From positions 68,932-128,991 of the forward strand of contig PS015198.1 in NCBI GenBank assembly GCA_048213135.1: 60,060 bases of DNA, written 5' to 3'. Both the position numbers and the translations under genes were made by a program. Below are positions 18,491 through 60,060 of this stretch, in pieces. The notes beneath the pieces were generated by a model. That model was given only the letters and a program-made list of their open reading frames with translations. It was not told where the DNA came from and did no database searches. Each line of letters begins with the position of its first letter. Within the stretch, counting starts at the first letter, position 1. The DNA is from Reclinomonas americana ATCC 50394 (Eukaryota).

Positions 18491-18574
18491 TTTGCTCTCG
18501 CTCTCTCTCTTTTCGTTTCTTGCATCACGCAGCGCGCGCGTGTGTGTGCGAAACAACAACAAAGACGCATACAG

Positions 18575-21500: not shown

Positions 21501-24500
21501 GTCGTCCACCATCAGAGTGATCTCTTTGAGCTTGCCTGTGACGACTGCGGGGTTCCGATGTCGGAGCCGGGTCGCACGTCGTCTGCAGTCGGATGTGCTT
21601 TCAGCAAGAGCCTCGGTGAGACTGTCAGTCATTCACGCCAGTCAACGCCCAAGTCAGTAGAGGGTGTGCTTCAGCGTATGATCAACTACATCGAGGTGAG
21701 CGAACATTCTTGGCGACGACCATGACATGTGAACCAACATGCAGATGATTGCAATCTGCAGATGAGCCAGCTCAGTGGCGCGGCACTGGTGGATGCGATT
21801 GAGAGACCGCTGATTGTGGTGAATGAGCGCGGGCATTCGGAGGTGCATTGCTTTGCATGATCTTCAGTGACTGTTATGATCGTGTCCGTTGATCTTCACC
21901 CTCGACCTCGTGTTACAGGAATCATGGAAGAAATTGTCACCTAGGCACAAGGGCAAGAAAGATCTTCTTCAGCCGTTTGTCAAGCAGGCCACGGATGCGT
22001 TGCGCGAGTGCGATGGTCTCATGGCTGCTCTGCTTCGGGACAATCACCTCACTGAGGCCGAGATAGCACGTGCCGTCACGTGGTGCCGATCAAAAGGTCT
22101 GCAATCTCATACCGCTGTTGGTGTTGCCGGTGTTGGTGTTGACCAGCACCGCGCAGAATATGGGGATGTGAAGATGGTGGTGAAGAAGGAGGAGGAAAAT
22201 GACGGAGAGGGTGATGTCCTCAAGTTCGAAGACGAGGACGTCAAGGTACGAGCAACAAAAGCTGCGGGCGCGCAAGTCTTCGTGGAGTTGGTCGACCATT
22301 GATATCTTGCGTGTTCACAGGACGATGACGGAGAAACAAAGCCAAGCAAGGTACGGCGATGCCCGATGTTTGTGGATGGTTGGTGAGGCAGGTGTTGAAT
22401 GTGGATGTTGTGTGGGGTATGCACTTGCAGCGCCTCAAGAGTGGTCGCCGTGTGCCGGATGTGGATTTGAGCAAGGACGAGCAGATGGTGCTGGACAGAC
22501 TGCTTGTTGCGTGTGCGTGTCCATAGTACCTCAGCAATGCAGAGTGATTGACTCAGCCATGTCTTTGTCTGTCGTAACACCTGATGCTTGTGCATGTGTG
22601 TGCGAACAGCGATGCAACAAGAAGAAGATACTGGTGATGGCATTCGGCATCATGGCGCCCATTGTGAAGCCATCCGCAGTCTTGCATTATCAGCGGGTTC
22701 TTTTCGAACTCGCCTGCACGGAATGTGGCATCCCTTCGTCAGGAGCTGGCTCTCCATCGTCCGCAGTAATGGAAGCATTCGGCAAGAGATTTGGCAGTAC
22801 CGTCCAAGGCGCACGCACCAAGACGCCCAAGTCAGTTGAAGGAGTGCTCCAGAGCATGAGCAGCTTCATCGAGGTGAGCATCTGTCTGTTCTCCATCTCT
22901 CACATGTGACTGGTGAGTGAGCCAATATCAATTCATGTGCAACTCTGTAGAGGAGTGAACTGCGCGGTGCTACTCTGGCAGATGCCGTTGAGAGACCACT
23001 TATTGTGGTTGATGAACGGGGCTATTCTGAGGTGTACCGAATTTCCTTTGTGCGCTCTTGCGTTTCCCGGTTTGTGGCGACTGACTTGCTTCTTTTAATA
23101 TGTCGGTCGTGCTGCAGGAATCATGGAGGATGTTGGAGATGAAGCAGAAGAAAAACGACCATCTCCTGCCTCTCATCGCCGAAGCTGCGCAGGCCCTGCG
23201 TGAGTGTCCTGGGTTGCAAGTGTCGCTGAGTCGAGACGGCTGCCTCTCCGAGGCGGAGATCGCACGGGCCGTCGAGTGGTGTGGCGAAAGAGGTTTGATG
23301 GCATCCGTTGTGTTGTACTGTGTGCATTGTGTTAGGACTGACGAGTAACATGCAGCTCTGCTGAAGGCGACGGTGCTGAAGAAAGAAGAGATGAAGGAGG
23401 AGGAGGAATGGGAAGATGATTCAAGGGTCGATGGGGAAGACGATTCAGACGACGACATGGATGAAGCTGACAGGAGGAAGGTATGACCATGGATGATTGG
23501 ACGAGTGCACGTTGTGGCAACATATCATCTGTACATGCACAGCGACGAGGGAGAGGTTCTGTGACAATGAGCAGGGACGAACAACTGATGCTGGCGAGGC
23601 TGCTTGTTGCGTGTGTTTGCAGTTGAGAGTCCTTCTGCGTAAGTCGTCTTGCTCATTGTGTGTTCATCGCACCACCGATGTGTTTCATGCGAGAGCAGTG
23701 CTGCAACAGGAAGAAGATACTGGTTACGGCGTTTGGCATCATGGCGCCGTGTGTGATGGATTCCACAGTCCGTCATCATCAGCGCGTTCTTGTTGAACTC
23801 GCCTGCAAAGAGTGTGGCGTCCCCTCGTCAAAAGCAGGACGGCTTTCGTCGGCAGTCATTAACTCATTTAGCAAGAGTCTTGGCGAATTCGTCCAGAGGG
23901 CACGTGCAGGGACGCCCAAGTCAGTTGAGGGAGTGCTCCAGATAATGAGCGACTTTGTCGAGGTGAGCAGCGATCATCTTCTTGCGCAAGTTTATCAATG
24001 GTGAGCGCTAACATATGTGCCATTATGCAGAAGAGCGAACTGCGCGATGCGGCTCTGGCGGATGCCATTAAGAGGCCGCTGTTTGTGGTGGATGAACGTG
24101 GTCATTCGGAGGTGTGTGGCTTCCCCGCGCTCAGTGTGCGTTGTATATGCTTAGCATGGCTGATACTTTCTCACTTTCTCTGCTCCGGAATTCGGATGTC
24201 AGGAGTCGTCACGCTTGGCGGCGATTAAGCACAAGAGGAAGAGTCCTCTGCTGCCGTTCATTACGCAAGCTGTGGATGCTCTCCACAACTGCCCTGCCCT
24301 GTTGGCCACTCTGCTTCGAGACGGCTGGTTGTCTGAGGCAGAGGTTACTCGTGCCGTCGAGTGGTGCAGTGAACGAGGTTTGGCTGCGTGACACACATTG
24401 TTGCAAATTGTGAATACTCTGACACAGGCGACAGCTCTGAGAGAGATGGAGATGGTGAAGAAGGAGGAGAAGAGGGAGGAAGAGCAGGAGGATGATAACG

Positions 24501-30440: not shown

Positions 30441-31629
30441 TCTGTCTCTCACACACTCTCACACACTCTCACACACACACTCTCTCACTGAGAGACAGAC
30501 ACACACACACACACTGTGTGCCAGTCACGTGTGGAGTCACGGTGTCTTGGCGCACGCACACTGGTGACAGAGAGAGAAGGGACGTGAGAGGGACAGCAAG
30601 TACGACGTCGCGTAAAGGCTTTTGTTTTCTCGACCCCCTTGCGTGTCCTGCCAAGGGTAAACAATGTATCATGAGCGCACAGGCTAACACAACAGGAAAC
30701 CTCGTTCCCTTTGATGCAATGTGATGTGCGAAGTGATCCGCGGCCAGACGTCGTCGAAGCTTTAGAAGATGGGCATTGAGAGCGGCCAGCTGCGCCGAGT
30801 GGTGGACAGATGCTGCGTGGAGATCTTGCAATATTCGCTTTCCGCTGTGCTGGTGGCAACCTGGGTCAAAACCAGAACCAAGCGAACAATCTCCCACCTC
30901 AGGGCAATTAGAACCATCGCGTCGCTACTGCAAAACCCAGTTTCAACGAGTTCAGCGTCTACGTAGGCCGCCGACACTATTTGCGCCACGAAATCCTCTA
31001 GAGGCCAACACGCGTTTGATTGGCTTTGCCTCTCCTGAAAGGGAAGATGACTGTTGGAGAAGAGCAACTATGTTTTTTGTAAATTGTTGGTGCGCCAAGG
31101 CCATTGTCGGCAAGGACATTTGTCGCAATGTGGCGAATGATCATCAAGTGTTTTGTGTGGTTTCTGAAGTGCGAAGCCTCGAATAGCAGCAGCTCATCCA
31201 AACAGCAGCACAGCCGCTTGGAGATTACCATCTTGAGTGAGCACCAGAAACCATGACATCCCGAAACAGTTCGAACCGTAAATGCCGACGTTTCCAGTGA
31301 CTCGCACTCTTCGGAGGGCACTCTGCTGTGGCACGACATGCGCCGGTCACAGCGATTTTCGAGCTGTCAAGAGGGCGCACATTGCTGGCAAGGCAAGCAG
31401 GCACAGTTGGCTAGACACCACTCGCGGATTGATGCACTCTGTCGAGGCCCGAAACGAAACAACTGCTCGCCACGATTCTCCCTCCCCTTCGCTCACTCTC
31501 CCTCATGTTCCCCCTCTCACTGCAACGCACTCCTCGTCTCTCGCTGGACAGGAGATACTCTTCCTATCTCTCTCTTACACATGCACTCACGTTTGAGGGG
31601 CGACGTCGCAAGCATGTACAAGTGTTGTA

Positions 31630-32126
31630 TTACATCGAGGTGCGTTGCAGCACCACGTAGGTGGTGGCAAACCCAATGCCCTTGACCTCCACGCTCGCCA
31701 TTTCGACCTCGAAGAGACCACGCGTCTTTCGAAAGGTCGACTGCGACGAAGAACGCAACTGTGAGCGGACGAAGATTCATGACCATTGTCGTGCTGCGTA
31801 CCTCGCTCATCTGTACACCCCCGTAGGCGGCCGAGCTTTCCATCCGCGACGCCATGTTGACCGAATCTGTTGAAGCAGCACAGACGATGGTGAACAACAG
31901 GTTTATTGACAGATAGGACAGCGCTCAAACGAGAGGTGAAATGATCACAAAATACGTGATCCCCAGCAAGTTTCTTGCAACTATGCAACACCAACAAAGG
32001 CGGAGTACGAACCATATCGGCCACGAATAATTATCGCTCTGCATCTGCTCAATGCGTCAACTCGTGCTCTCGTAGAAACTCGCCTCTCTCATTTCCTCAC
32101 TCTCTCCCATTTTCCTCTCTCTCTCC

Positions 32127-32210
<84 letters not shown>

Positions 32211-32702
32211 CTACTACTACTACTACTCTCGTACTACGTACTACGTACGTACCGTAACGTCGTACGTACGNNNNNNNNNNNNNNNNNNNNNNNNNNNNNN
32301 NNNNNNNNNNNNNNNNNNNNNNNNNNNNNNNNNNNNNNNNNNNNNNNNNNNNNNNNNNNNNNNNNNNNNNNNNNNNNNNNNNNNNNNNNNNNNNNNNNNN
32401 NNNNNNNNNNNNNNNNNNNNNNNNNNNNNNNNNNNNNNNNNNNNNNNNNNNNNNNNNNNNNNNNNNNNNNNNNNNNNNNNNNNNNNNNNNNNNNNNNNNN
32501 NNNNNNNNNNNNNNNNNNNNNNNNNNNNNNNNNNNNNNNNNNNNNNNNNNNNNNNNNNNNNNNNNNNNNNNNNNNNNNNNNNNNNNNNNNNNNNNNNNNN
32601 NNNNNNNCCGTACCGTACCGTACCGTACCGTACCGTACGTACCGTACCGTACCGTACCGTACCGTACGTACGTCTCTCGCCGCTCGCACTACACTACTAC
32701 TA

Positions 32703-32778
<76 letters not shown>

Positions 32779-35700
32779 CAGTACGCAACTCGTGCAGCAG
32801 TGGTGCGAATGACGCCCCTTGCTTCCAATGCAAACTCCGTCACCGCAGCCGCATGATCGTGGCGCGGCAGGTACATGCCGGCCACCGCAAGGTACGCCGC
32901 TCCTGTCGCCGAAATCGGGTGAGCACGAGGAAAAGGTGACAGCGATTTCACCAGTGCCTCCACTCACCAATCGTCTTCACCCGCTCGATACCGAGTTTCG
33001 AGACGAGGCGGTCGAGTGCACAGACGACCTCGTGCACCACCTCAATGCGCTCCGTCAGAGACACCTGTTCATCTGCACGGGGAGGCACCACAAGGTCAGT
33101 CAGGGAGAGAGAAGAGACAGAGAGAGAAGCTGTCTTGGTGTGTTGTCTCTTGTACTCATGTCGTCACCTCCTCTCTTGATATCCTGCTTCTCACTTCTTC
33201 GCCTTTTCAGCAGACTGTCTCTGCGTCTCTCGCGTTTCTTTCACTCTCGTTGCCCCCTCTCCATGTGCCCATCAGAATCCTTTGACAATCCTTTGCCACT
33301 TCATCAGACTGCTCTGCGTCTTTTGCGTTTCTCTCACTCTCTAATTCTATCTCTCCCATTGCCTCCCTTTTTCACTCTGGTTCTCTCGCTGTTGTCTGTC
33401 TGTCTCTCCTTACTCTCTCTCTCTCTCTCTCATTCTCCCTCTCTTTCGGTCTCTTTCTCTCATTGTCACTCTCTCTCACTCTACATAGCTTCTCTCTCAC
33501 TGCCCCTTATTTGTTTATCAAGAGCCCCATCTTGGCCTTGGCAACGAGACCCTCTTCCTCTCCATCTCTCTCCGTCAGTTTCAGCAGGTATCACATAGAG
33601 AGAAAGAGGAAACCCGAGAATCAGCTGAGGACCGCATCCAGCCCCTCTCCTTCCCCCTAGTCCCCCCCTCTCCCTCCCTTCCCTTTCCGCACCTCTCCTC
33701 GTCACCGACGCGATCTTGACAAACACACACGTCACATCGGCGTGGTGCTCAAACAGTGTCGGCCTGGCATCGCCTCCAACGCTACCGACGTCGGACTGAT
33801 GGAAAGTACACGAAAATCAGTACCGCACTCTGGTGCGAAGAAGACAAGGGCGAAGAAAGCATAGACCAAACCATATCAAGCATCTCCAGTGCACGCGCAG
33901 TCGAGGTTGCGCGCATTTTGTCGAGTGCGGCGGGAGGGAAAATGGTGCTCAGCAACTGCGCAAGATACAAACAATGAGGATCGGAAGACGGAATCCAAAC
34001 ATCAAGACAGAGCACCCCCGACGAGAAACAGTAGAAGAGAGTCGAACTGTCTAACGCACACCACTGCTCCTGTGCTAGATTTCAGATAGGAATGCAAAAC
34101 GATAGGAAAGGAAAACCAATGAAGGCTGTCAATGTGCACAACAGTACGATAAGAAACAAAGGTCGTGCTGACGTTTCTGAAGAAGACCTTGTGCCACACT
34201 CCAAACACACATGCAGAAAGAAGCAAAAATGAGTCAGTGTCATTATCTAGCGACCATCAACCCTTCCAACTACGCGCGTGAATAAGGCCCTCACAGAAAC
34301 TCAGCAGTGCCTCTCAATCTCCTTCCCTTGCCCTTCACTACGTCGCTGGGCGTGGCGCATTATCTCGTGGCCGCCTTCCGGTGCATGGTGTTCCTGTTGC
34401 AGCCGCAGGGAGCGTACTACCCAACGCTACTCTCTCTACCTTTCCTTCCATTCCATCCACTTCTCCCTCTCCCTTCCCCCTTCTCCTTACCTGACACAAT
34501 CTGGCATTCTTCGCCTGCTGCTGCTGCATCGACACTCGCTGCACATTGGGCATCGACAGTCGCACCATCACTCGTCTGATCGAGTCGCCGGCAGTCTGGC
34601 AGGCCCACAGCACGAGACGCTCCCTACGAACCACAAAACAGCATGTCAGCCCGCCCACTTTCTCCCTGAAGGCGAGGCCAAGAATAAATGTACGCAACAC
34701 GTTGCCGGTCTTGCACCGCACGTTGACCTCGATACCCTCCGAGCGCATGCCGGCATTCAACACCTCCTGCATCACCATGCCCTCCAGCAGCAACAGAATG
34801 TTCTCGTGATGCGACTGCGAGGTCAGGTCCTCGGTGCAGTAGCCAGTCATGCGTGTCACTGTCGTGTTGCACCACTGAATCTCGCCATTCTCGTCGGTCC
34901 ACAGAATCTGCACACGAGCATGTGAGACATATGTAGACAGATGTCACGAAGACTCAAAACTCGTTGCACGCAACTGCATCCGACGAGCTACACAGCATGT
35001 TGCTCATCTCGTCAACCTTCTCCTCGTAGACGGCGCGCACCTTGACTTCGTCGACAATGGAGCGCATGATTGCACACAAATAGCGCTGACCACGCATGGT
35101 GACGACCATCACTTCCAGGCGCGTAGGAAGGAGGTTGCCATTCTTCTGCAAGGCCTGCACTTCCAAGCTTGTTGTTCTGCATGGGAGTGGTGAGCTCCTG
35201 CAGACTGTAATTATAACTATCGCGTGGTACGCACTTAGAACACGCGGGCTTGACATTGTCGGTTGAAGAGTCCAATTGAAAGAGAAACCGCGCGACATAC
35301 CTGCAGCACATCACCAGTGAGCACACCTTCCCACTGCCCTATTTCGCTCTGCTATCATTTTTCCTTGCCTCGCTCAAAGACAGCAGTGTGGGAGAAAGCC
35401 CGGAAAGAAAACGACAGCAGAGAGCGAAGGAAGGAAGGCACTTCATGCGCTTTCCCTTCTCTCCCTCTCCCCTCCCCCTCTCTTCCTCCTCTTCTCCCCT
35501 CTCTTCGCCTCCTTTCGCAACGCAACGAATCATGTCTCTCGGCATGCGGCGACGGCATCAGCACGCGAATGTGCCTCCCGAGCAGTTCGTCGGCACTGCC
35601 ATAGCCAAACATGCGCACCGCCGTGGCATTCACTTGCTCCATCACTCCATCCTCTCGCGCCACCACCACCGCCTCGGGTGACGTGCGGGTGGCCAACGCC

Positions 35701-38700
35701 AACTGACAAAAGACATGCACTCGAGTCAGGAGACAAGCGCATGCCAAGTTGAAGGACGACCACATCCGCACCTTGTTCAGTCGGTCTTTCTCGCGGGCCA
35801 CAGCAGCCACCTTTTCGCTAATGTCGCGAAGCTGCACCGCAAAGAGACGTCGCTCGCCGACATGGCACTCGACCACCATCAGCGCGACGGGGACCATGCT
35901 ACCGTCACGGTGGCATGCCTGAACGCCGCCAGAATGAGTGAGAAGACCAGGGAAGGGGGGCTTGCACGTGAGAACACGCTGACCTCGGCATCACGCGTGA
36001 TGGCTAGTGGGCGACGGCTGGCCACCGGCTGCGCCATGTAGCGCGCCAGGTGGCCGTCGTGAGCGGCATGCAACCGAGGTGGAATAATCGTCTGCGTGCG
36101 CCACCATATTGAACTGAGTATAGATCGCCGCCACCAGCCACAACTCACGAACGCGCCACCCAACCTTGATATTCATACCGACAATGCTCTCACTCGAGTA
36201 ACCGAGACAGCGTGTGAAGCGCCGGTTGATGAATTCGATGGTGCCCTGTGGTTGCACATGCAATGAGCTTCACATACGGAATAAATCGTCCGCTCCTCGC
36301 AACGTACCGCTTCGCTTGTCAAGACCAGAGCGCAACCTGTGAACAGAGGAGTCAGTCGCCGCGTCGCTCCACATGTGCGGAACCCTTGTGAAGCGCAACT
36401 CGACAGAATCTCGCGCAGATAGAACTCGCTCTCGTTCATCTGGTGGTTCAGTTTCATCGAGGCCAGAAGCGCATCTGCACCATCATCGGTCAGCATAGCG
36501 CAATAGTTCCTTAACATAGCGTCTGTCACGCAACGAGGCAGCAGCTGCATCTGCAGCTCAGGAACCGCGTTGACCACGGCTGTCGGCACTTGAAGGAGCG
36601 AGCGCTTGAAGAATCGCAGTTGTTGATCGACTTCGCGGAGAAGTGGGGCGACGCACAGCACTGAGAAGAGCAGCGTGCCGAGCACACCCACCGCCACAAT
36701 CGCCATCGAGGTGAATTCGGCGCGTCCAATTGTCCGTTCCAGGCCGAGACGCAGAGACTGTGTGTGCGCGCGCAAGTGAGCGAGACACATCAAAGCTCCC
36801 TGCACGCGCGCAGCAACAGCAACAACGCACCACCAAACTAGCATCAAAGTAGCGCACAAGGGTCTCGTGCGCTGCGAGAATGAAATTCAGATCGTTCAGG
36901 TCGGCGGCACTCGGCGGATTCGTCACGTGTTCGGCAAGCCCCGAAGCAGCTGTCATCATCGAGTTCATCTGGCGACGAGCGTTGCTGGTGAGCAAACAGA
37001 ACGGGGACCACACATAATTGCTGCCGATGCATCGCAAACCAGTGCGCTAATCGGCAGACAGCGGACGATCTTTGCCCACTGTGGATTGGTATCCACGGAT
37101 AACTCCGCCTCGCTGCATCGAGCATCGTACAGCAAGTCCGCTTGCGTCTGGTCGTCCCACCCACTGTTGGTCACCAGATCGGCAATCACCTCTTGCTGCT
37201 CGAGAAACTGGCATGCAGTTCACACAGGTCGTGAGGATCTTGGACAAAGAAAAACACCACCCTGACAACAGGAACAAACCTTGGACACAACGCGCTTCAT
37301 CACCAGCTTCGACTCCTCCAGCATCACAAGTCCAATGGGGTGCGTGAGTTCCACGGCGGCCATGGCCACCGCGGGCAGCATGGCATTGCGCGTCTCAATA
37401 TCATTGAAAATCTCCATGCTGCGTGAGGTGGCGGTGGCCACTGACGATGCGCACAGGCTGCGAGGATGACAGAGAACAAAGACGTCACGCTATCGGGAAG
37501 ATTGGGGTGGATAGTTGATCACTAGCGTACGCAACGTCAACACCAACGTCACCGAGAGCGCGATCAGAACCAGCGCCGCGGCGCGCACCACTAGGTTGCG
37601 CAGAAATTGAAAGTCGACGGTGGTGCACTGCGTCGCCACATACTTGGGCGTCACAATGGTGGAGGGATGTATTCCCTGCACGACAGAAACATACACACGT
37701 CAGGCGCTGTGCCATACCACCACCACGATGCACCAATCGGCACGCAACATCGCGCACAGTGTGCGTCATCTCCAGATACTGCAAGTACCGGTCGCGAATC
37801 TTGTGGCACACCGATTGCATGTCCTTTTTCGGAACGAGGGTGAACGCCTGCAACGACTCGCGCAGTCGCTGCCTCATGTTCAGCGCCACTGGTAGGAAGA
37901 TTACCAGCAGGATTCCCAGACACAGTCTGCACCTCTCGTCAGCATATTAACAAGTACAACGACTGGGATAGACACGCACCCTATGCCGATTGCGAAATCC
38001 GTCCACACTTCCTTGTTGAACGATGCCGCGTCGCTCTCGGTCGCCACGTTCACTTGGTCGGCAATCGTCAAAATAATGTCGCTGACCACCATGCCGTTGG
38101 CGGCGGCAAAAACCACAGACTCGCGATCGACGCTTACAGAGCCACGCAAATCTCGCACCGGCATGTTTGCCACATCCTGCAGCACGACTTGTGTAAGCAA
38201 CTACGGCCACACGAAGACGGGTTGAGTCGATTCGCACGTACCATAACGGACTCCACAAACTTGCTAATCACATCCAAAGCAGGCGACTGAGAGACAACCA
38301 CCACTCCCTCCGTGGCAGTGGTGCCCTCCACCTCGCGAATACTCACCATTCGCGCCGATGCAGTGGTATCATCGCTGTGCGGAGCGTGACATTAGTATTG
38401 TGCGTGTTCGAGGAGGGGGGAGAATACGCACAGACTGGCGGCGGCGTCCACCACTCGTCGAACATACGTCGCATTCGTGACGAGGTCGATACGTAAGGCA
38501 TTCACTGCGGCCTCCGCGTCTGTCACCGCGGATGATTCCACGACGTCGCCCCACAGCTGTATCGCCGACAGCGAAGCTCGCGATGCGTAGGCGCTGCGTG
38601 GAAAATGAGTCTTCGTCATGAAGAGAGGGAAGAAGGGAAGTCAACATCATGAAGACCTTGCAGAGGCCAAATCCAGTGACAGCTCTCGCTGAGAGGCGAA

Positions 38701-42682: not shown

Positions 42683-45045
42683 GCTTTCCTGTTCGCCAAA
42701 GGCACGCGCTTGTGTGAGATCGACATTCACGAAAGGAAAAAGGCGCCACTCGGTATGACCAATCACACCAATCACTGCCACTCGATGGTCGGTGACGGAG
42801 GGAAACTCGAGGAGAAGGGTGCTCGACTCGAGAGATTGAGGTCGTTGTCTTTGCTCACGCGCAAGATGAGAAAAAGAGTATGAACAATGCGTATGGAAAG
42901 TATTGGTCTTTTATGCATGCGCAAAACGATCAAACGCCGCGTGCATATAGATGTGCGCACGCGTAGGGAGGGGTTCGGCTGTGCCACTCTGCTGCATGCG
43001 CAAATATCGAGCGCTGTACGCTGCCGTGCACCTCATCGCAGCAGGTCTCTGCTGCACATCGCAGCACCGTTCGATATCGGCGCCTTTACTCCTTATCTGG
43101 AAGTCTGCGAATCTCGCAGTGTACGTGCTCGAGAGGGCAAGGGGTCGTCGCAGGTGACTCACACCAACACAATTGCACATGACGCTTTGTACGTGTCGCG
43201 GAGGGTCGTTGCTATTCGAAAAAAATGTTTGTTCGCTTTTGAAAACCGATCGTGATTGCGTAATAAATCTCGATATTCACCAGAGAGAGAGAGAGAGAGA
43301 ATGAGGCTTAATCACCATTTACTCGTGCGTAGAGCGCTCCTACATGTGGCGAGACGGAGTGATGCCTCCATTGCCAGGCTGCAGAATCGCGCGCTCTCCT
43401 CTCACACTTTCACGTATGCGTATGTCTCTCCACCCACACACACATCGCGATCACCTTTTCCTCTCCCAACCGACGCCGTCGAGCAGGCCTCCGACTCCTT
43501 GACACGCAGAGTGACCACAGCAAGGCTTGGCCGCTGAAGACTGCCGCCGAGCTTGAGGAGTGCCGTACGCGTAATTGCAATGGGTGCAGATTGCACACAG
43601 GAAGCGCGCGCTGCTCCTTCTCGCGATCGGCGATGCCGGCGCCGTACGCGTTGCCCACGTCATGGGTTCTTCTGCAGAGCGTCGTCAAAGGCACCACACT
43701 TCCGCAAGGCCTTCCAGCCCGCACTGAGACGCTTGGACTGAGAAGTGTGACATCTCAGCTGCAGGCAAACGCGAGAGGCGAAGGGAGACGCAACACCGCC
43801 GTCCGACCGAGACTGAGCAGCAGCCAGATGCACCGCCACACTGATACCCAACTTCAGAGAGTGCACCCATCACGTGCACGTGCGCATGCACAGAGCGGAC
43901 AGCTGTGCACGGCGCGACGAGGAGCGTTTGGGTCAGTGGTCACGTGCATCAGGAGCACGAGCAGGGGGGACAACAGGAGACAACAACACAGAGAACCGCT
44001 ATGGTGTGGCAACTGCTCACTGGCCACCAAACCAGCAGTCGGCAATTGCAACTTTGCTCGTCCTTCGTGAAGTCGTCAACACGAACACCAGCCACCTTCA
44101 CCGAGCAGTGGAGTCAAGATCAGCAGAGAGGCCGCGGCCGCTTGCTCCACCACCGAGAACAGGCCGAGAGCACCTCTTGATAGCGGAGTGTAGAGGAAGG
44201 TGCCGGAGTCGTTGTCAGTGTCGCGCGCAGGTATCGATGCGCATGCGCATGCTGTCGAGGATGCTGCTGTCGATATCGATTTTGGCGACAGTACAGAGGC
44301 CGCTCTCCACCTCGAGCTCCACAGCACGCTCGAGTGCGATCGCGAGGCCAAGGCAGAGACAGATGCTGTCGCGGTCGAGGTTGGCGGCGGCAGACAGGCC
44401 ACTCACTGCGCTCACTCTTGATCCGCTGCGGATCCGGATCCATCACAGACCACGCATGATCTTGAGCCAGATTCGCATGGAGCGTGTGAAGAAGGGATAC
44501 TGTCGCAGATGCACGAGCACAGCCTGCTTGCCAACTGTAGTCAACCTTGTCCACCAGCTCATGCGCAGCACCAGCTGAATTCGAAGTGCACGCAGCGTGT
44601 CGCCACCGAACAGTCGAGAATGCGCATGCTGTGGTGAGGGGCACGGTGAGCCGTTGTCTCTCTTCATCATCACACGCACGACCAAACAACGACTCCACTC
44701 GCACCTGCTTTGCTCCTCTTCTTCAACTTGCCGTTTTCCAAAACCACTCATCACCACGTCGACTCTCCCTTTACCTCTTATGATTATTTTGTTCGGGTCG
44801 CCACTCACTTTTTCGAGCGACTGTGCGGACGCGCAAGAGAGGGAGAGAGTCAACAAGCGTTGGTGCCCTCGAAAACTTCTCCCGTTGCGTTTTTGTGCGT
44901 TGTTGTTGGGTCACCGCAAAAGAGTTTCCCGGCCGTTGGTTTTTCGCGCGCAATATTTTTCACCGGGAGTGAGGAGAGAAGGAGAGTCAATTATCACTCG
45001 CAAGTGCGCGTTTCGAAAGAGTGTTGACACGTGTTGCTGGCCATC

Positions 45046-48000
45046 ATGGACGACGCAGCGATGGTACCGTCGGTGACCGACGAGCTGCAGATGGCACTGG
45101 GGAGTCTCACAGACAGAACAGCGATTGTCGAGATCGCGGTGAACTCGGCTGTTGCGTCGAGCACACTCACTCACACACACACTCACACTCACTTGCCCAC
45201 TCACACGTGTGCGTCGCAGTGGCTCTTCTTTTGCTCGGCGCTGGTTTGTTTGTCGACACTGATGCGAAACCGCTCAGCAGCTGCTCATTTTGCGCGCACA
45301 CTCTCACACAGGTGTTTATCATGCAAGCGGGCTTCTTGCTCGTCGAGGTGTGTGTGTGAGCACGTGTGTGCGTGCCTGTGTGTGTTGATGACGATCTGAC
45401 TCTCTCTCTCTTTGTCATGTGATTGCATTGATGTGACCGTTGAGTAGGCGGCCAGTGTCAAAGGCAGTGTGTTGTCCATTGTGCTGAAAAATGTGCGTCA
45501 CTTTGCTCTCTCTCTCTCTGTCTCTCACACACACACACCACGTGCATGTGTGCTCACTGTCAGCGATGCTCCTGTGTTCTCACAGACGACGGATTTCATG
45601 TCGGTTCGAGACTCTCCTTTTCACCGTAAGCGGCAGTTTCTTCGATGCTGATCCTCTTGCCCTTTTTTGTGCATCTTCTCCTCCTTCCTTTCCTATGTCC
45701 ATCTTTTTCGTCTTCATGATTGCAGGGCTCCCTCATGTGGTGGCTTCTGGGGGCCACGTTTGCCGGCAGTGAGGGACCTTCCACCTTTATTGGCTTCTCC
45801 ACCAAGGAGGTGCTGGCTTTCCCCGAGGAGAAGCAGTTTCCGTGGATGTTTGGCCTCATGTTTGCCACGACTTCTGGTGCGTGTCCCTCTTGCACGTTGC
45901 GTGTTCGTGGCATGCTTTTGCTCACTCTGCAAGCCTCGCGCAGGAACGATTGTGTCTGGCGCCATGGCTGAGCGCACCAAGTTCACCACCTACATGTTCT
46001 TCCACGCCATCATTTGTCTCGTGCTCTACCCAGTGGTGGTGCACTGGGAGTGGTCGGCGAACGGCATGTTCAGTGGCTACACAGTGGAGGAGAAGCGAGT
46101 GTTTGGGCCGTACTTCTTGCTTGACTTTGCTGGTGCGTTTTTACGAGACCGTGCTTCTCACTTCTGATGCTTCATGTGCTCACGCTTCTCGGTGGCGCAG
46201 GTGACGGTGCTGTGCACATGGTCGGTGGCACGTGCGCTTTCGTCGGAGCGTGGATGGTGGGTCCACGCGAAGGCGTCACCTTTAAGAAAAGCGTGCTGGA
46301 CGAGGACGACGTGCTGAGCAGTGCTGCCTCCTCGCTGTCGTCGGTGAGTTTGTCACACAAGACTGCACCGTGATAACCCGAGCTGTGCGCTGACTCGACC
46401 GCACAGGGAAGTCGCGCGACGGACGAAGACGAAGGACCGGTGACAGACACGTTGTTGGAGCTCATTCGAAACCAGTGGGTTCGTGTACATCATCTTGGCC
46501 GCTAGAAACTCTTGGTGCTTCTTGTTCTCACTCCATCTTTCTCCATGTGCGCAGGTCAAGGTGTGTGTGCCACACTGTAGTCCATCTGCGCACCCCCTAA
46601 TCACTGTTCTCACCCACCCGCCAACAGACCCAGATCATTCTCTCCGCACTCGGTGTGTTCTTGCTCTGGTTCGGGTGGCTCGGCTTCAATGTCGGCAGTA
46701 CTGGCTACATCATTGGCACCGAGATCTGGAAGGTGGCTGGTGAGTGGTCTTCATTGTGGCCGCGCAACACTCCTCGTTTGTGTGCCCACACTTCGCCGCG
46801 CAGGTCGTGCCGGCCTGAACACTGTGATTGCCGGCTCGTCGGCGACCATCACTGCCCTCGGCCTCGGCTATCTGCAAGTTGGGCGCATCAACCTCACCGC
46901 CGTCCTCAACGGATCGCTGGCCGGCCTTGTGGCCATTACTGCAGGTTGGTGGAGGCGCCTGTTTTTCATTCGAGCTTGTCACTGCATTATGTAACCGCTG
47001 GCTTGCCATTGAACAGGGTGCTCCATGATGGCTCCCTGGGCGGCGTTCGTCACCGGTATCATTGGTGCCGCGGCATACTTGGCCGGTGCTTGGCTCACCA
47101 ACATTCTAAAGATCGACGACCCGGTGCGTCTCCTCGACGACAAAGATCTCGTGATGCGTCACTGACACTCTCCCTGTCGTGCAGGTCGAAGCGTGCGGTG
47201 TGCATCTCTTTGGCGGCTTCACGGGTCTCATGTGCACTGCCTTCTTCTACGACGACGAATATGTCAATAAGAGTGAGTCTCGCGGTGCAAAGTCGTATTT
47301 CCAATCTTGTGAATTGCTCACTTCATGCAGTCTATGGAGCTGGTACGAGTGAGAAGATGGATCGTGGCAAGGCGATTGGGTGCCAACTGGCAATCGCACT
47401 GTGCATTTTCGCTTGGTGTGCCGTGAGCAGCTATGTTTTGTTGTTCCTTTGGCGCTACGTGTACTCGGACAAGTCGCTGCGAGACGCCCACAACGATGCC
47501 AACCTGTTCGGCGCCGATGTCGAAGACCTGTACGTCGCCACTCTGGCCTCGGCCCCGCGCGGCCGCGTCGTCATTGCCTTTACCGATGTGGAAGGTGTCT
47601 TGTGATTGCTCGAATGTTCTATAAATGCGGGCTGACTGTGTGCTTGTGTCCGTCCGCAGGTTCCACCGCCTTGTGGGAAGCCGATCCGGCGGTAATGAGC
47701 CGCAGCATCACCATCCACCACAAGATCATGCGTAACATTATTCGTGAGCACGGCGGCTACGAGGTGAAGACGGAGGGTAAGTATTCTTCAAGTGTGCATG
47801 TCAGCAAGTAACACCGATCCTGACCGCTCATGTCGCCGCACGCACGTAGGCGACGCTTTCATGATTGCCTTCAAGGAGCCACGGACAGCGCTGAACTGGG
47901 CGCTGGAGGCACAAATGGCTCTGTTGAAGGTGCGCTGCTCATGATGTTTACTTGCACTCACTTGCTTCCTTTGTGCTCACCAAACATCTCTTTGGCGGTG

Positions 48001-49662
48001 AATAGGCGCGCTGGCCGCGAGTGCTGTACACTTTCAAGCACGGCGATGTGAAGCAGGGAGCTGACGGGCCGATTTACTCTGGTCTGCGCGTGCGCATGGG
48101 TCTGCATTTTGGCCAGGTGCAAGACAAGGTGAGGACAGAGGGAGAGTGCGTGCGTGTTTGGCGACGTCGGCATCGTTGTCACTAAATGCTTTCTCCTCCC
48201 ATTTGATTCTCTTGGTGCAAACGTAGGTCGACGAGGTGAGTGGATTCACCTGCTCGCTAATGCGCTCGTCTCTATGATCCTAATTCCAGTGCGCCCACAC
48301 GCAGACCAACAACCGTCCCGACTACTACGGACCAATGGTGAATCGTGGCGCGCGTGTGGCTGGCACAGCCGCCGGCGGCATGATCCACGTGAGCGAAGAA
48401 TTGCTCAGTCAGATCCCTCGCAATGCTGACGGTACACTGGACCTGTGCCTCGGCACATGCACCAACTACATTGGACCGCTCATGCTGAAGGGCCTGGACG
48501 ACGCCATTCATGGTGAGGAGACAATTTGCTGGTCAAGGAAACTGTCGTCGGTGTGTCTCACCTTTATCGCATACGCGCAGTGTATCAAATCTTGCCCTAC
48601 GCGCTCCGCGAGCGCGGCACGGGCGGATGGAACAACATCTCCTCGGTGCCGGAGGATCTGAGCCAGTTTGTGCCCGACACCAACCTCATCAGCGACGAGG
48701 CCAAGATGGCCGAGGAGGATCCACCGACACAAGACGATGCCACTCCCGACGTCAACGCTGCTGCAGAATTCAGTCCGTCGGAGTCAGGAAAGTCGGCAAA
48801 GAGCGGCGCGCTCATTGTCGCCGCGGCTCGGTCCAACCGAAGTGGACGCCCGGGATCGGCGTCCGCGCAGAGTCGACGCAGTCGACCTGGCGAGGTGTGT
48901 GTCGATGAATAGAGAAGAGAGGAATTGTCTTGCCTGGTGGTTCGCTGACTGTTCGCACAGTCCCCACGAGACCCAGAAATGGGTGCTGGCGGAAGCCACG
49001 CTGGTGGCCTCATGAGTCCGGCTAGCGCCGGCTCACAGCGAAGCCTTCGATCACGGCGTCCAAGTGGCGACGTGGTGAAGTTTGAGGAGGACTCTGCAAT
49101 CGCTCGCATGGCGCGCGACACGACCGAGTTGGAGGACCTCACCAAGAGCGCGCGCAACAGCGGCCGTCGATTCTCCCACTTCGAGGTGGTGTGCATACCG
49201 GGCACCAATGGTGGCAAGCCCCAGTTTTACATGCAGCCAAAGGAGCAACGTCGACGCGGCGACGAGTACGTGATCAGCGAGAATGCACCGATGCATGTAA
49301 TGCGCAGCGCCACCGGCTCGGTGGCGGAATTCGCTCGGCTGCCACACCAGCCAGATGCGCACAGGCAGCACGAGGACACCAGCAGCAGCGTCGGCGAACG
49401 ACGAGTGGGTGTGATGCCTCGCGGCGGCGGTGGCGGCCACGTCGACGACGAGCACGTCGACTCAGAGATTGAGGAGGTGGTCGGCGCGCGCCACTCCATC
49501 CCCGACATTGGCACCTACCACCGGCAGCAGTCGGGATACGGGGATGTGGACGGCGGAGTCGCGCCGATGCCATCCTCCGGATCGAATCACAGTGCTGGCG
49601 GCACGAGCCGCCGGCGAAGTGTTGGGTTTGCGCAGTCGCCGCGTTCCGACGAGCACGCGTGA
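45046..49662 (+). CDS. Ammonium transporter (Amt/Mep family) fused to a C-terminal class III adenylyl cyclase
   Basis: Amt motifs: WLFFCSAL|VFIMQAGFLLVE, LKN|TTD, FGLMFATTSG|TIVSGAMAER, YPVVVHWEW, DFAG|DGAVHMVGG, GPREG, LWFGWLGFNVGS, NGSLAGLVAITAG, KIDDP|VEACGVH. One exon (~47330-47594) holds both the last TM helix and the cyclase start RVVIAFTDVE. Then G|STALWE, YEVKTEG|DAFMIAF, GLRVRMGLHFG, RPDYYGPMVNRGARV, GGMIHVSE, LKGL, a Ser/Arg-rich tail and stop TGA ending 49662. Confidence 0.93.
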
Positions 49663-50498
49663 GCTGAGAGGGAGAGAGAGAGAGAGGGAGATAGGAGAAA
49701 AATGAGTTCAAATCAAAAGCAACGTAATATGCTGCAGAAGGGGGAGGGCAGGCGAAGCTACAATGCAGGCTCAGCTTGTTCGAAGCTCCAAGAACAAACA
49801 AAATCACTTGCCAGATATCGATTCGGATAAGGATGATATCGAATGCCGCGCGCAATATCGACGAATTCGATACGCGCGCGCAGTGAGTGTGGTATCATTG
49901 TGTGGCACGATCCGGGGTCACCAAGTGCACAAGGCTGGCATCATCCAGCGCCACAGCAATCCACTGTTCAACCACGCAGTTCTCGACTTGTCCGGAGCTA
50001 CAGCTCGGGCTCCGAGAGCGCACACACACTAGGAACCTGTTGCTGCCAAGATTGGTGTTTGTGTTGATGTTTTGGATACGGTTGAATAACTTGGTCGACG
50101 TCATCAAGACAGCTGTTGCTTGTTTGTTGCAATTGGTGCACGCTGCGTGAATGAATTGTTGTTCATGCTTTTACAATCGGATCCGTTTATGCCTTCTGGC
50201 ACCGGCACCTCTTCGATAAATTTGCAGCAGCTAAGTGTCTAATCCACGCTCGAGTCATGGGTTCTCTTGCAGATCCAGAATTCGAAACTTCGAATTCATG
50301 CATGACTACCACCTCTCGACGTTCTCTGAATCTCGAGATCGTGCTGCTTCTGTTATATTGCATCTGTCGCTGGTGCTCACTGACGATGGCAATCATCATG
50401 CAGCCGGTGTTGCTTGAGCGTTTCCCCACAAACCCGCCCTTCTCTTCTCTTCCCGCCATTTCCATTGTCCCGGTGTTTGCCATTCACACTCTTCACAA

Positions 50499-51055: not shown

Positions 51056-51810
51056 GAGGAGNNNNNNNNNNNNNNNNNNNNNNNNNNNNNNNNNNNNNNN
51101 NNNNNNNNNNNNNNNNNNNNNNNNNNNNNNNNNNNNNNNNNNNNNNNNNNNNNNNNNNNNNNNNNNNNNNNNNNNNNNNNNNNNNNNNNNNNNNNNNNNN
51201 NNNNNNNNNNNNNNNNNNNNNNNNNNNNNNNNNNNNNNNNNNNNNNNNNNNNNNNNNNNNNNNNNNNNNNNNNNNNNNNNNNNNNNNNNNNNNNNNNNNN
51301 NNNNNNNNNNNNNNNNNNNNNNNNNNNNNNNNNNNNNNNNNNNNNNNNNNNNNNNNNNNNNNNNNNNNNNNNNNNNNNNNNNNNNNNNNNNNNNNNNNNN
51401 NNNNNNNNNNNNNNNNNNNNNNNNNNNNNNNNNNNNNNNNNNNNNNNNNNNNNNNNNNNNNNNNNNNNNNNNNNNNNNNNNNNNNNNNNNNNNNNNNNNN
51501 NNNNNNNNNNNNNNNNNNNNNNNNNNNNNNNNNNNNNNNNNNNNNNNNNNNCATCATCATCGCCACTGCCGTCACCAGCACAACAGAGAGCCACACTCAA
51601 TCGTACAAGCGAGAAAAGAGATTCAGAGAGGGTAAGGGTGGGGAAAAAGACATCAATCGAGAAAAAACACATAGGAGTGAGAGGAAGGGAGCGTGCGGAA
51701 ACCACATTAAGAGTCGCGCGCCGACAGCTTACTCGCTCTTCTGTGGTGGGAGGGGAGGAAGAGTGAGTGAAAAGGGAGAGGAACGGGGCAAATTTTTCAA
51801 TCACACAAAC

Positions 51811-52077: not shown

Positions 52078-53316
52078 TGCATGAAGAGAGTGGAGAGAGG
52101 GAGGATGAGGGGAAAAAAGAGCGAGATTCGGAAGAATGCACACACAGACATGCATTCGAGCGCTCGCCAGCGCGTCTTTCGCATGCATTGTGCGGTGACT
52201 GTGTGCGTGTGAACGTGCGTTGCTATGTGTATGCATCAGTGTCATGCGTTTGTGTCCGCGCACATGTATGCATGCACTCAACGTCGCTGTCTAACATCGA
52301 CACTGGCAAATGCACCACTCAGAACGCCTCGCTCTCACACAAGCACATACACACACACAANNNNNNNNNNNNNNNNNNNNNNNNNNNNNNNNNNNNNNNN
52401 NNNNNNNNNNNNNNNNNNNNNNNNNNNNNNNNNNNNNNNNNNNNNNNNNNNNNNNNNNNNNNNNNNNNNNNNNNNNNNNNNNNNNNNNNNNNNNNNNNNN
52501 NNNNNNNNNNNNNNNNNNNNNNNNNNNNNNNNNNNNNNNNNNNNNNNNNNNNNNNNNNNNNNNNNNNNNNNNNNNNNNNNNNNNNNNNNNNNNNNNNNNN
52601 NNNNNNNNNNNNNNNNNNNNNNNNNNNNNNNNNNNNNNNNNNNNNNNNNNNNNNNNNNNNNNNNNNNNNNNNNNNNNNNNNNNNNNNNNNNNNNNNNNNN
52701 NNNNNNNNNNNNNNNNNNNNNNNNNNNNNNNNNNNNNNNNNNNNNNNNNNNNNNNNNNNNNNNNNNNNNNNNNNNNNNNNNNNNNNNNNNNNNNNNNNNN
52801 NNNNNNNNNNNNNNNNNNNNNNNNNNNNNNNNNNNNNNNNNNNNNNNNNNNNNNNNNNNNNNNNNNNNNNNNNNNNNNNNNNNNNNNNNNNNNNNNNNNN
52901 NNNNNNNNNNNNNNNNNNNNNNNNNNNNNNNNNNNNNNNNNNNNNNNNNNNNNNNNNNNNNNNNNNNNNNNNNNNNNNNNNNNNNNNNNNNNNNNNNNNN
53001 NNNNNNNNNNNNNNNNNNNNNNNNNNNNNNNNNNNNNNNNNNNNNNNNNNNNNNNNNNNNNNNNNNNNNNNNNNNNNNNNNNNNNNNNNNNNNNNNNNNN
53101 NNNNNNNNNNNNNNNNNNNNNNNNNNNNNNNNNNNNNNNNNNNNNNNNNNNNNNNNNNNNNNNNNNNNNNNNNNNNNNNNNNNNNNNNNNNNNNNNNNTG
53201 GTGGTGGTGGTTCTCGCCGCCACCCACCACGTCTCCACCGCCCAGCACACATGCTGCAGCCGCTTGCAATGCATCCAATCCCTCCACCTTGCACCTTACT
53301 TTTGTTGCTTCTTCCT

Positions 53317-57490: not shown

Positions 57491-60060
57491 ATGAACGCCG
57501 AGTTCGAGCACGCCGCTCCTCCTCTCCCCGTCGCCATCGACTGGGATCGCCTTCACACTCAAGTCATCGACTCGCCACTCTGCAGCACACTGCTCAAGGC
57601 CGCCTCTGTGTACCACGACGATGCAGTGGCAGCGATGCGCGATGTGCCTGCTGATCGCGTGGAGGAGCTGCGTCCACTCATTGTCAACCTCGCCGATTGG
57701 TGCACTGAGCAGGTGGGTGGGATGATGATAGAGAGGCAGTGCGAGACACACGCACGCACTCACTCACTCACACGCACACCACTCACTCGCTCACTGGCTC
57801 ACACTCTTGCACACACACTCACTCTCTCTCTCACACAGAGGGGAGGGGAAGAGAGTGAGAGGCAGAGAGTGAGAGAGTGAGTATTTCCGAACAAATGCAC
57901 ACACACTCTCTCACTCACTCACTCACTTGCTCACACTCGTTCACTCACTCTCACACACTCTTGCACACACGCACACAGAGAGGGGAGAGAACGAGAGTGA
58001 GAGAGTGTGAGTATTTCCGAACAAATGCACTTGCACACACTCTCACACACTCACTCACGCGCTCATTCACTCACTCACTCTCATACACGCTCACTCACTC
58101 ACTCACACACACTCTTGCATCAGTCAGTATTTCCGAACAAACACTCATTCTCTCTTCTTCACACACTTGCACTCTCTCTGCTTTTATCTCTACTTCTCTC
58201 TCTACTTCTCTCACTCTCTGTGTGCACTCTCTTTCACAATCCGAGTATTTCCGAACAATCGTGTCTCGCAGACCGCGGACATGATCAAGGGCTTGTGCAC
58301 ACTCCTCAACACCGTCGGCGTTGCTGAGATTGGCGATGGCGAGGAGGCGGCGGAGCGCTCGCGACGTCGCCACAACACGCTGCGATTGTTGTGCCGTCTG
58401 ACACTGCCCAGCAATCTCGACTGGGAGGAGGATGTGGACGAGGATACGCAGCGCATGGTGAAGGAGCGGCTCATGGCGCACTTCAAGTCCTCGGCACGCG
58501 ATCGCGTGACCATGGAGTTCCTCATGCAGCTCGTCACGCAGGTCGCAGTCATGGCCTTGCCGTTGCGTGTTATTACTTTTCCGTGTTGATCGCCACTTGG
58601 CGCTTAGTGAGTGTGTGCAGGACTGAAGCTGGATGGCCGCTGCTGACTGGCACGCTGGTGTTTTGCATTTGCTCGGAGAACTCTGTGCTGCGCGAGTTTG
58701 CGCTGAACACCTTCAGCAATGTGCTCCCCCACATGGCCGAGTCCAGCGTGCAGCAGATGCTGCCGGGCGTGGTCGGCATTCTGCGTCGCATCATCAGCGC
58801 TGGTGTGTGTGTCGCCACCGCCACCACCACCACCTGCGTTGCATTGCTCTCACGCGTTGATTGTCTCGCTTTGCAAGACGCGTCGCTGGACATGCGCTGC
58901 ATCGCCGCCACCCTCGTCCTCTCCATTCTCTTCCAAATGGCGCAGCGAGCGGCGATTGTCAACTTGCTCAAGCCGCTCGTGTCGCTCATGGCCGACGTCA
59001 TCCGTGATGCCTTTGCGCAGCAGCTGTATAAGCGGTCGACTGCTCTGTTGCAAGCCTTGCAGACGCTGGTGAACGACGTGCCGCAGGTGCTGAAGCAGCA
59101 CGTGGACGCCGTGGTGGAGGTGTTGATTACCATTATGGGCGACGCCGCGCTGGGCGAAGCCGACGAGCTCTCCAACGTTCGCATCGCCGCGGCGAAAGTG
59201 TTTCTCGACATGGTCAATGCCTTCAAGCCGCTGCGCAAGAAGAAGGCCCTCGTCACCGGTTTCCTTCAGACGCTGCTGCACTGGACCACGCTGGTCACCG
59301 ACGAGACGTTCATTTGGGACTGGTCGTCGGTGTGTTAACGCTCCGGATCCATTGTCACTTCCACACTCCATCTAATCAATCGCTTGCTGCTGCTGTGTTG
59401 CAGGTGGAGGATGACGCGGATCGTGGGCGAGTGCTGTACTACGAAAGTGTCCAGATGCTGGACTCCGTGGCCTCCTCTCGCATTGGTACGCACGCACACC
59501 GCGCAGTTCCCGTGTGCTCGTCTTTTCTGTACCTTACTCAACCCTCTCCTCTCCTTGCTCCACCTGCAGGCAGCAAGAACCTCCCGCTGTTTGCCAGCCT
59601 GATTCAGGATTACAGCGTGGCGGCCGAATGGCAGCGGCGTTCGCTGGTCGGCCTGCTGTTGGTGTGCATGTGTGACGAGTTGAAGGACCACCTGGCGCCA
59701 CTGCAGAGCCAGTTGATGCCAGTCTTGCTTGGCCTTGCTGACGACCAAGACTCGCGTGTGCGCTCGAGCGCCATCGCTGCCATCTGCACGCTGCTCAATA
59801 CCTATCAGCCGGACGCCTCCAAGACTTTCTTCCGAGAAATCATGCCGCTCCTGCTCCGACATATTCTCGATCCCGACGAGCGGTGCGTTGTGCAGGAAGC
59901 TCTTTTTTTGTGATGGTTTCCGAGTGCTGGAGACTCACTTCTCCGTCTCCCCTTTTTCCCCCATTTGTCTACACCCTTCTCGTTCCTCCTTCACCTTCCT
60001 CCCTCGTCGTCTTCCCTTTCCGCCTCCCCCCTGCTCCTTCCCCCTCGCTCCTTCCCCTTC
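57491..60060 (+). CDS. HEAT-repeat protein, importin-beta family-like (importin-4/5-like); runs off the window
   Basis: Helical Leu-rich exons with HEAT signatures: AGWPLLTGTL..LREFALNTFSNVLP, VRIAAAKVF, AEWQRRSLVGLLL..CDELKDHL and LLGLADDQDSRVRSSAIAAICTL. The subfamily assignment is by motif resemblance only. Confidence 0.7.

Follow-up and report, generated by a model that had tools for sequence, protein, structure and literature searches.

A Gene Fusing an Ammonium Transporter to a Class III Cyclase in Reclinomonas americana, a Candidate One-Component Ammonium Receptor

Could a eukaryote couple external ammonium to cyclic AMP (cAMP) within a single polypeptide? This question is raised by a gene at 45046..49662 (+) in a 60,060-nucleotide (nt) stretch of DNA from Reclinomonas americana ATCC 50394 (assembly GCA_048213135.1, contig PS015198.1, positions 68,932 to 128,991 of the forward strand), hereafter called the window. 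The gene joins an ammonium transporter (Amt) domain to a class III cyclase domain, and this fusion is confirmed by the DNA sequence. Since every residue for ammonium handling and ATP cyclisation is kept, the best reading would be that of a one-component NH4+-to-cAMP receptor. The predicted product would be a membrane protein of ~1000 amino acids (aa) in which an AMT1/AmR-type Amt is followed directly by a Cyr1/GRESAG4-type adenylyl cyclase and then by a disordered tail. The probability given to this reading is about 0.55.

Gene Structure, Junction Exon and Functional Residues

The window had the character of eukaryotic nuclear DNA, with moderate GC content, many N gaps, CA/CT microsatellites and short GT-AG introns. 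The coding sequence of the Amt-cyclase gene was obtained by joining the exons by their coordinates in a script, after direct reading of the region 44900-49800. The resulting splice model (~21 exons, in frame, plus strand, GT-AG introns) spans exactly the interval 45046-49662 that the initial annotation had assigned to the gene. Its coding sequence comprises 3009 nt plus the stop codon, running with the frame open throughout from the ATG at 45046 to the TGA at 49660-49662. The 20 introns range from 58 to 149 nt and average 80 nt, with AG at the internal acceptors and GT at the donors.

The two domains meet in one open exon, located at 47331..47594 (+, 264 nt) and encoding aa 398-486. This exon reads, in order, through the loop before transmembrane helix 11 (TM11), TM11 itself (~aa 419-441), the C-tail motif SLRD..FGAD (with G458 and D460), ~16 further residues and the first strand of the cyclase (RVVIAFTDVEG), which holds the metal-binding Asp D483. 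When compared with P0016 and P0152, two proteins that also combine Amt with a cyclase, the Amt homology ended at aa 464 and the cyclase homology began at aa 466-472, both inside the exon. Because the two homologies meet inside one open exon, the fusion is independent of the choice of splice sites. A single exon spanning from the last transmembrane helix into the cyclase had been proposed in the initial annotation, and this proposal was borne out, with both homologies in one frame. Neither HAMP, PAS nor any other Pfam family was found in the junction exon, and a crude hydropathy scan showed no hydrophobic segment beyond the one at aa 419-437. The number of helices (eleven in the Amt family), the topology (N-terminus out, C-terminus in) and the trimeric state of this Amt are suggested by homology only.

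Pfam scans were made exon by exon, and short exons lower the scores. Six exons matched the Amt family PF00909 in an order collinear with the profile (positions 100-144, 154-178, 190-215, 225-267, 269-304 and 306-330; E 1.4e-11 to 0.024). The spliced model aligned over aa 13-464 to full PF00909 domains with E values from 2e-52 to 1e-69. With blastp, the values were 2e-52 (35% identity) for the Amt of the fused protein P0004 and 1.5e-69 for P0020, an Amt of ordinary length. Apart from PF00909 and the cyclase family PF00211, the only Pfam matches were PF11821 and PF11167 on exon 12, both below the cut-offs (E 0.07-0.1), and no family was found on exon 6, the junction exon or exons 9, 16, 17, 20 and 21.

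The family residues of the Amt pore were located in aligned columns: the twin His (H182 and H375), the Phe gate (F105/F109 and F268), the Trp/Ser recruitment site (W148 and S272) and D174. In AmtB these positions are numbered H168/H318, F107/F215, W148/S219 and D160. All the elements listed for this module in the initial annotation (twin His, Phe gate, Trp/Ser site and the remnant of the C-tail, here SLRD..FGAD) were found. Furthermore, a signature for a lateral ammonium pocket, N1/N2, has been proposed for receptor Amts as Q-X6-E-X15-N-X2-D-F/T-X54-60-T-X2-S/T (PMC11152129). All seven of its residues are present in the window Amt, as Q35, E42, N57, D60, F61, T115 and S118.

When exon 7 was compared with solved structures, the only matches at E ≤ 0.01 were 8qj3/8qj4/8qpf (E 1.9e-5) and 6eu6 (E 0.0013), which represent three distinct sequences, and no chain of AmtB or Mep2 was among them at this threshold. 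The former group belongs to Sd-Amt1, a bacterial receptor Amt, and 6eu6 is taken by us to be Ks-Amt5. Residue 1 of exon 7 aligned with residue 104 of the Sd-Amt1 chain, so that T115 and S118 correspond to T104 and S107 of Sd-Amt1. The homolog P0004 gave the same ranking, with 177 bits for Sd-Amt1, 145 bits for 6eu6 and ~136 bits for AmtB-type chains.

The catalytic domain of the cyclase lies at 47552..48627 (+; aa ~472-680) and was delimited by PF00211, blastp/tblastn and a 17-row alignment. Two exons matched PF00211, one at profile positions 19-56 (E 0.027) and the other at 122-152 (E 0.0042). The domain was 39% identical to that of P0004 (E 1e-33) and 42% identical to the Cyr1-type domain of P0209 (E 5e-50). 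Among solved structures, exon 15 matched the Trypanosoma brucei cyclases GRESAG 4.3 (E 2.5e-5) and GRESAG 4.1 (E 4.3e-5), and exon 19 gave only weak matches to Ma1120 in the PDB (E ~0.7). In class III cyclases two Asp residues bind the metals, an Asn/Arg couple serves the transition state, a Lys contacts the phosphate and a Lys/Asp pair specifies adenine. Seven of seven such residues occupied conserved columns of the alignment: D483 (FTD), K522 (KTEG), D526 (EGD), D601 (RPDYYG), N608 and R612 (VNRGAR) and K657 (LKG). The metal-binding Asp residues, the Lys/Asp pair and the Asn/Arg couple named in the initial annotation were all confirmed as D483/D526, K522/D601 and N608/R612, with K657 as an addition. 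By its sequence, the domain carries the full residue set of a homodimer-competent cyclase in one chain, with K522/D601 as an adenine-type pair.

The remaining exons were modelled as follows. Models A and B predict proteins of 1002 and 1007 aa, respectively, and diverge only before 45312: model A uses the exons 45046-45103, 45220-45251 and 45312-45347, and model B splices 45046-45150 to 45312-45347. Both 5' variants (+) are in frame and uncertain, with weak donors (GTCTCA/GTCGAC or GTTGCG), and either would supply the N-terminus and TM1, including Q35 and E42 (MQAGFLLVE). The following exon, 45448-45492 (+), and the 18-nt micro-exon 45586-45603 (+) supply N57, D60 and F61 (LKN/TTDFMS); this pair includes the weak donor GTTCGA and is aligned without gaps to P0004 by blastp. 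The exons before 45312 and the small exons 45586-45603 and 48227-48235 were placed by homology and splice signals only, and both micro-exons are supported by ungapped alignment to homologs.

The Amt core is encoded by 45726-45876, 45944-46132, 46201-46343 and 46407-46478, followed by 46628-46739, 46804-46944, 47017-47123 and 47185-47272 (all +; collinear PF00909 matches, blastp E ~1e-50). Together these core exons hold F105/F109, T115/S118, W148, D174, H182, F268, S272 and H375. The 72-nt loop exon 46407-46478 is uncertain and optional in the model. The cyclase is assembled from the end of the junction exon, 47660-47776, 47850-47929, 48006-48128, the 9-nt micro-exon 48227-48235, 48305-48512 and the start of 48581-48894. 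It is followed at 48628..49662 (+) by a C-terminal tail of ~320 aa, rich in Ser, Gly, Ala and Arg, in which composition and Pfam reveal no recognised domain, exons 20 and 21 being without any Pfam family.

Related Amt Fusions, Origin of the Gene and Neighbouring Features

The initial annotation had assumed that eukaryotic ammonium signalling uses unfused transceptors and had called for a search for the Amt-cyclase architecture across eukaryotes. A full HMMER scan with exon 7 returned 915 matches at E ≤ 0.001, headed by very long proteins that matched the exon twice. All 16 proteins of at least 800 aa among the top 150 matches were scanned for domains, and 15 of them contained two Amt stretches. 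Amt was combined with Guanylate_cyc in four (P0003, P0004, P0011 and P0016), with a protein kinase in two (P0005 and P0024), and with a cyclic nucleotide-binding (cNMP-binding) domain in another four (P0002, P0006, P0010 and P0030, the last also with Ion_trans). A single Amt with PP2C was found in P0125, and the other five (P0001, P0007, P0031, P0039 and P0084) had Amt only. These long proteins came from EukProt transcript assemblies of the diplonemids Namystynia karyoxenos and Artemidia motanka, from "Hpha" assemblies and from one ENA contig.

A further search with residues 800-1230 of P0016 listed 120 proteins, nine of which carry PF00909 and PF00211. Two such NCBI entries are annotated just as 'putative ammonium transporter 1 member 5 [Diplonema papillatum]'. 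In all, 11 further Amt-cyclase proteins were gathered from diplonemids and ENA genomes (P0003, P0004, P0011, P0016, P0151-P0156 and P0160), three of them from transcript assemblies; P0157, with an Amt and a degenerate cyclase, was counted apart. Single-Amt forms are P0152 (1119 aa) and P0156 (1069 aa). At the sequence level, the assumption of unfused transceptors fails in view of these 11 proteins and of the kinase, cNMP-binding/ion-channel and PP2C fusions.

The catalytic set was kept in 14 of the 16 aligned cyclase domains of the fused family. The Q/E/N/D/T/S residues were kept in 29 of the 33 Amt domains of the wider fused family, and each of the four exceptions was the first of two tandem domains. 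In these four giant tandem-Amt proteins the first Amt has lost the N1/N2-type residues and the second keeps them. A second Amt domain upstream of the window gene, as in the tandem homologs, was looked for and rejected: tblastn with 268 proteins gave 651 high-scoring segment pairs, none of them outside 45000-49700.

No paper describing a eukaryotic Amt-cyclase fusion was found in a literature search that left subscription journals and supplementary files outside its scope, and none is described in the available parts of PMC9561859, PMC5322657 and PMC6423903. The Amt fusions of diplonemids and ENA genomes look like an undescribed expansion of putative Amt-based receptors. Additionally, the ESM Atlas gave no usable match to the junction exon or P0156, and 376 pattern matches to the junction exon among metagenome contigs yielded none that was confirmed.

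The window gene differs from this family in several respects. The second pore His and the first metal Asp lie 109 residues apart, compared with 192-218 in all 11 others; a spacer of ~85-110 residues present in each of them is lacking here. The window Amt obtained its best scores with Amts of ordinary length (P0020, 224 bits; P0088, 215 bits), compared with up to 191 bits for fused ones. In a quick cyclase tree, made with a careful search incomplete and usable as a lead only, the window cyclase fell in a set of 24 rows, 22 of them Cyr1-type (support 96 in the Shimodaira-Hasegawa-like approximate likelihood ratio test, SH-aLRT), where its long branch (1.57) leaves the placement unsure. Uniting all fused Amt-cyclase proteins as a group would require four changes on this tree. 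Because of its single Amt, its affinity to ordinary Amts, its Cyr1-type cyclase, the missing spacer and the kept Phe gate, the window gene is probably not a simple descendant of the diplonemid Amt-cyclase family, and it looks like a separately derived, linker-less version.

A broader proposal can be put forward tentatively, at somewhat less than even odds. The window gene would encode an independently evolved, linker-less eukaryotic ammonium receptor in which the C-tail of a sensor of the AMT1/AmR type acts directly on an adenylyl cyclase of the Cyr1 type; together with the diplonemid Amt fusions, it would show repeated use of Amt as a modular receptor in eukaryotes. If this were true, the connection long sought between Amt/Mep transceptors and signalling by cAMP and protein kinase A (PKA) would be realised here in one polypeptide, and the protein would be a candidate ammonium chemoreceptor of a free-living protist.

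Several other features were observed in the window. A repeated coding segment, present in at least seven copies on both strands, occupies 11544-22909 and represents a local gene-family array of unknown function; copies are located, for example, at 11544-11942 (+), 13719-14396 (+), 14888-15304 (+), 15941-16348 (+), 19668-20183 (-), 21105-21725 (+) and 22184-22909 (+). Their common stretch reads ...CNRK(R/K)ILVKAFGLMAP..HHQ..LF.L.C.ECG.P......SSA...FGK.L......R.KTPKSVEGVLQS.S.(Y/F)IEVS, and no Pfam family was found in the two copies scanned. A putative second signalling gene lies at ~31500-37000 (-), with PAS domains in the open reading frames (ORFs) 35358-35990 (E 3.3e-9) and 34341-34943 (E 9.6e-6). 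The ORF 31517-31924 (-) contains a cyclase-like ...VNMASRMES... motif; no cyclase was detected in it by Pfam (E ≤ 0.01) or by tblastn with Cyr1 and diplonemid-type cyclases. The ORF 58328-59335 (+) encodes importin-5-like TPR/HEAT repeats (PF25780, E 4.3e-10), and an exon at ~7150-7300 (+) resembles, by eye, a proteasome beta subunit. Throughout the window, the genes are flanked by many N runs and by long microsatellites of the CA, CT and GAG types (e.g. at 4500-5180, 6750-7100, 8030-8930, 10350-10790, 32270-32600, 51060-51550 and 52360-53200), the assembly being fragmentary.

Proposed Mechanism and Rival Explanations

In the mechanism that we propose, the Trp/Ser site would recruit NH4+, which would move past the Phe gate, reach the region of the twin His and fill the lateral N1/N2-type pocket (E42, N57, D60, T115 and S118). 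Occupancy of this pocket would displace transmembrane helices and the C-terminus of the Amt, as in Sd-Amt1. The shift of the C-terminus would then alter the head-to-tail pairing of two of the three cyclase domains beneath the Amt trimer, the active sites being expected to form in the head-to-tail dimer, and cAMP output would track external ammonium, through either activation or inhibition of the cyclase. All these steps are inferred; what was observed is one reading frame, intact residues and a cyclase lying directly after the Amt C-tail.

A number of points weigh against the receptor reading. The N1/N2 gaps between E and N (X14) and between F and T (X53) each lack one residue, and the sequence therefore fits a relaxed but not the strict pattern. 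Plant AMT1 transporters fall in the same cluster as receptor Amts (PMC11152129), and among the 30 Amts of ordinary length that are closest to exon 7, at least six of the seven N1/N2 residues were found in 19 and all seven in five. The apparent nearness to sensor Amts comes from exon 7 and the homolog P0004; exon 11 (E ≤ 1) and the exon 2-3 stretch (E ≤ 10) found no solved structure. On the cyclase side, the exon-level PF00211 scores (14.5 and 17.1 bits, for pieces of 38 and 69 aa) are under the gathering score of 21.9 because the exons are short. The near-absence of a linker is new and is the main structural doubt: with only 109 residues from the second pore His to the first metal Asp, two cyclase domains may be unable to pair under one trimer.

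The claim of a one-component NH4+-to-cAMP receptor stood only in part. The fusion and all the residues for binding, conduction and cyclisation are intact, and the N1/N2 residues, being common in ordinary-length Amts, are consistent with receptor function without establishing it. Those same residues, and the fact that the window Amt scores highest against ordinary-length and not fused Amts, would also suit an Amt that merely anchors the protein in the membrane and helps it to oligomerise, or that is a transporter of the ordinary kind. In that case the cyclase would be constitutive or controlled otherwise, by phosphorylation, pH, bicarbonate or the Ser/Arg-rich tail, whose ~320 domainless residues could hold regulation. 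To our knowledge, many class III cyclases have membrane domains without a proven ligand, which would suit such an arrangement. Nevertheless, a plain anchor would have no need of the ammonium-handling residues, all of which are retained, and the Amt C-tail, a known regulatory lever, leads straight into the cyclase. Furthermore, the fusion recurs in eukaryotes, where the Amt next to the cyclase keeps the signature that the distal one has lost in four proteins, and the two fused Amts put to the test both proved to be ammonium receptors (PMC11152129). On balance, an Amt without a sensing role is regarded as rather unlikely.

The coupling could also run in the reverse direction, with the cyclase or its nucleotide binding regulating ammonium transport via the C-tail, which governs pore opening in AMT1 and Mep2 (PMC6423903). 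The conducting-type pore residues would agree with this, the Phe gate being intact where most diplonemid homologs have L/Y, but a purely regulatory domain would not need seven of seven catalytic residues. A related variant, in which the product is cGMP and not cAMP, conflicts with the adenine-type Lys/Asp pair and with the fact that the nearest solved relatives are adenylyl cyclases; reverse coupling and a different product are, even taken together, very improbable. Slightly less credit still is given to an artefact of the gene model or a dead gene, whether through internal polyadenylation, alternative splicing, misassembly or an unexpressed pseudogene. The assembly is rich in N gaps and microsatellites, three donors are weak, and a word-index search of a collection of 5.8 billion protein sequences with the junction exon and exon 19, weak queries because of their shortness, gave nothing at E ≤ 0.01, the protein itself apparently being absent there. 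Against this, 45046-49662 itself is free of N gaps, ~21 exons are in frame without a stop, the functional residues are all intact, and the junction is contained within one 264-nt open exon whose ends match two domains in the same frame. The one-component NH4+-to-cAMP receptor is retained as the preferred reading.

Comparison with Known Systems

According to PMC11152129, only two Amt-based receptors have been characterised, both bacterial and with histidine-kinase or c-di-GMP output. Ammonium activates the fused transducer in both, Ks-Amt5 and Sd-Amt1, and a trimeric sensor driving a dimeric enzyme has been modelled (PMC11152129). The mismatch between Amt trimers and cyclase dimers, which the initial annotation had called unusual, is hence not peculiar to the window protein, having been described and modelled for Sd-Amt1 in the same article. 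Compared with these receptors, what would be new is the eukaryotic host, the predicted cAMP output and the absence of a linker module.

Sd-Amt1 of Shewanella denitrificans (PDB 8qj3/8qj4/8qpf; PMC11152129), the best solved match of both exon 7 and P0004, shares with the window protein a canonical pore, the N1/N2 residues, a C-terminal nucleotide cyclase and, by homology for the window protein, a dimer-working cyclase under a trimeric sensor. It differs in being bacterial, in its Amt-HAMP-GGDEF architecture and in its c-di-GMP output. Moreover, Sd-Amt1 has a HAMP domain and a long helix between its modules, whereas the window protein has neither, and from the GxD of its C-tail to the first cyclase strand there are only ~16 residues. 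Ks-Amt5 of 'Candidatus Kuenenia stuttgartiensis' is likewise a fused Amt receptor with an N1/N2 site, and 6eu6 was the second-best match of exon 7. It is bacterial, has a histidine kinase as output and was shown not to translocate ammonium (PMC11152129).

The diplonemid and ENA Amt-cyclase proteins are the eukaryotic counterparts, with PF00909 and PF00211 in one chain, N1/N2-type residues and the cyclase catalytic set, and they are 31-39% identical to the window protein. Two Amt domains were seen in six of the 11 by alignment or Pfam and one in P0152 and P0156; in the window protein there is just one Amt region. At the Phe gate, which the window protein keeps, most of these homologs carry L/Y. 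Fungal Mep2 is also a eukaryotic Amt/Mep protein that senses ammonium, and the movement of its C-tail is thought to transmit the signal (PMC6423903). Mep2 is unfused, however, and the window Amt is of the AMT1/AmR and not of the Mep type.

Regarding the cyclase, the closest solved fold by sequence is that of T. brucei GRESAG 4.1/4.3 (PDB 1fx2 and 1fx4). GRESAG4 proteins have a single-pass anchor and an ectodomain resembling periplasmic binding proteins. The closest sequences are fungal Cyr1-type domains (37-47% identity), which have GYEVKTEGDAFM and GPMVNR(A/G)AR in common with the window cyclase. Cyr1-type proteins carry RA/LRR/PP2C, none of which was matched in the exons of the window gene, where PF00909 and PF00211 alone attain E 0.03 or better, so the likeness is limited to the catalytic domain, and neither GRESAG4 nor Cyr1 has an Amt module. 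The channel-cyclases of Paramecium and Plasmodium and CYA18 of Chlamydomonas also combine, in protists, a transport-type membrane module with a class III cyclase (PMC9561859), but their module is K+-channel-like and not an Amt.

Mep2 and related transceptors feed PKA/cAMP-dependent programmes, and the partner that links them has not been found, according to PMC6423903. An Amt C-tail wired to an adenylyl cyclase would provide a simple ammonium-in/cAMP-out system for studying how the conformational change of an Amt is read out, and would be an extreme case of a trimeric sensor driving a dimeric enzyme nearly without a linker. Beyond its own role, the window gene suggests that marine protists hold a larger group of Amt-fused signalling proteins yet to be described.

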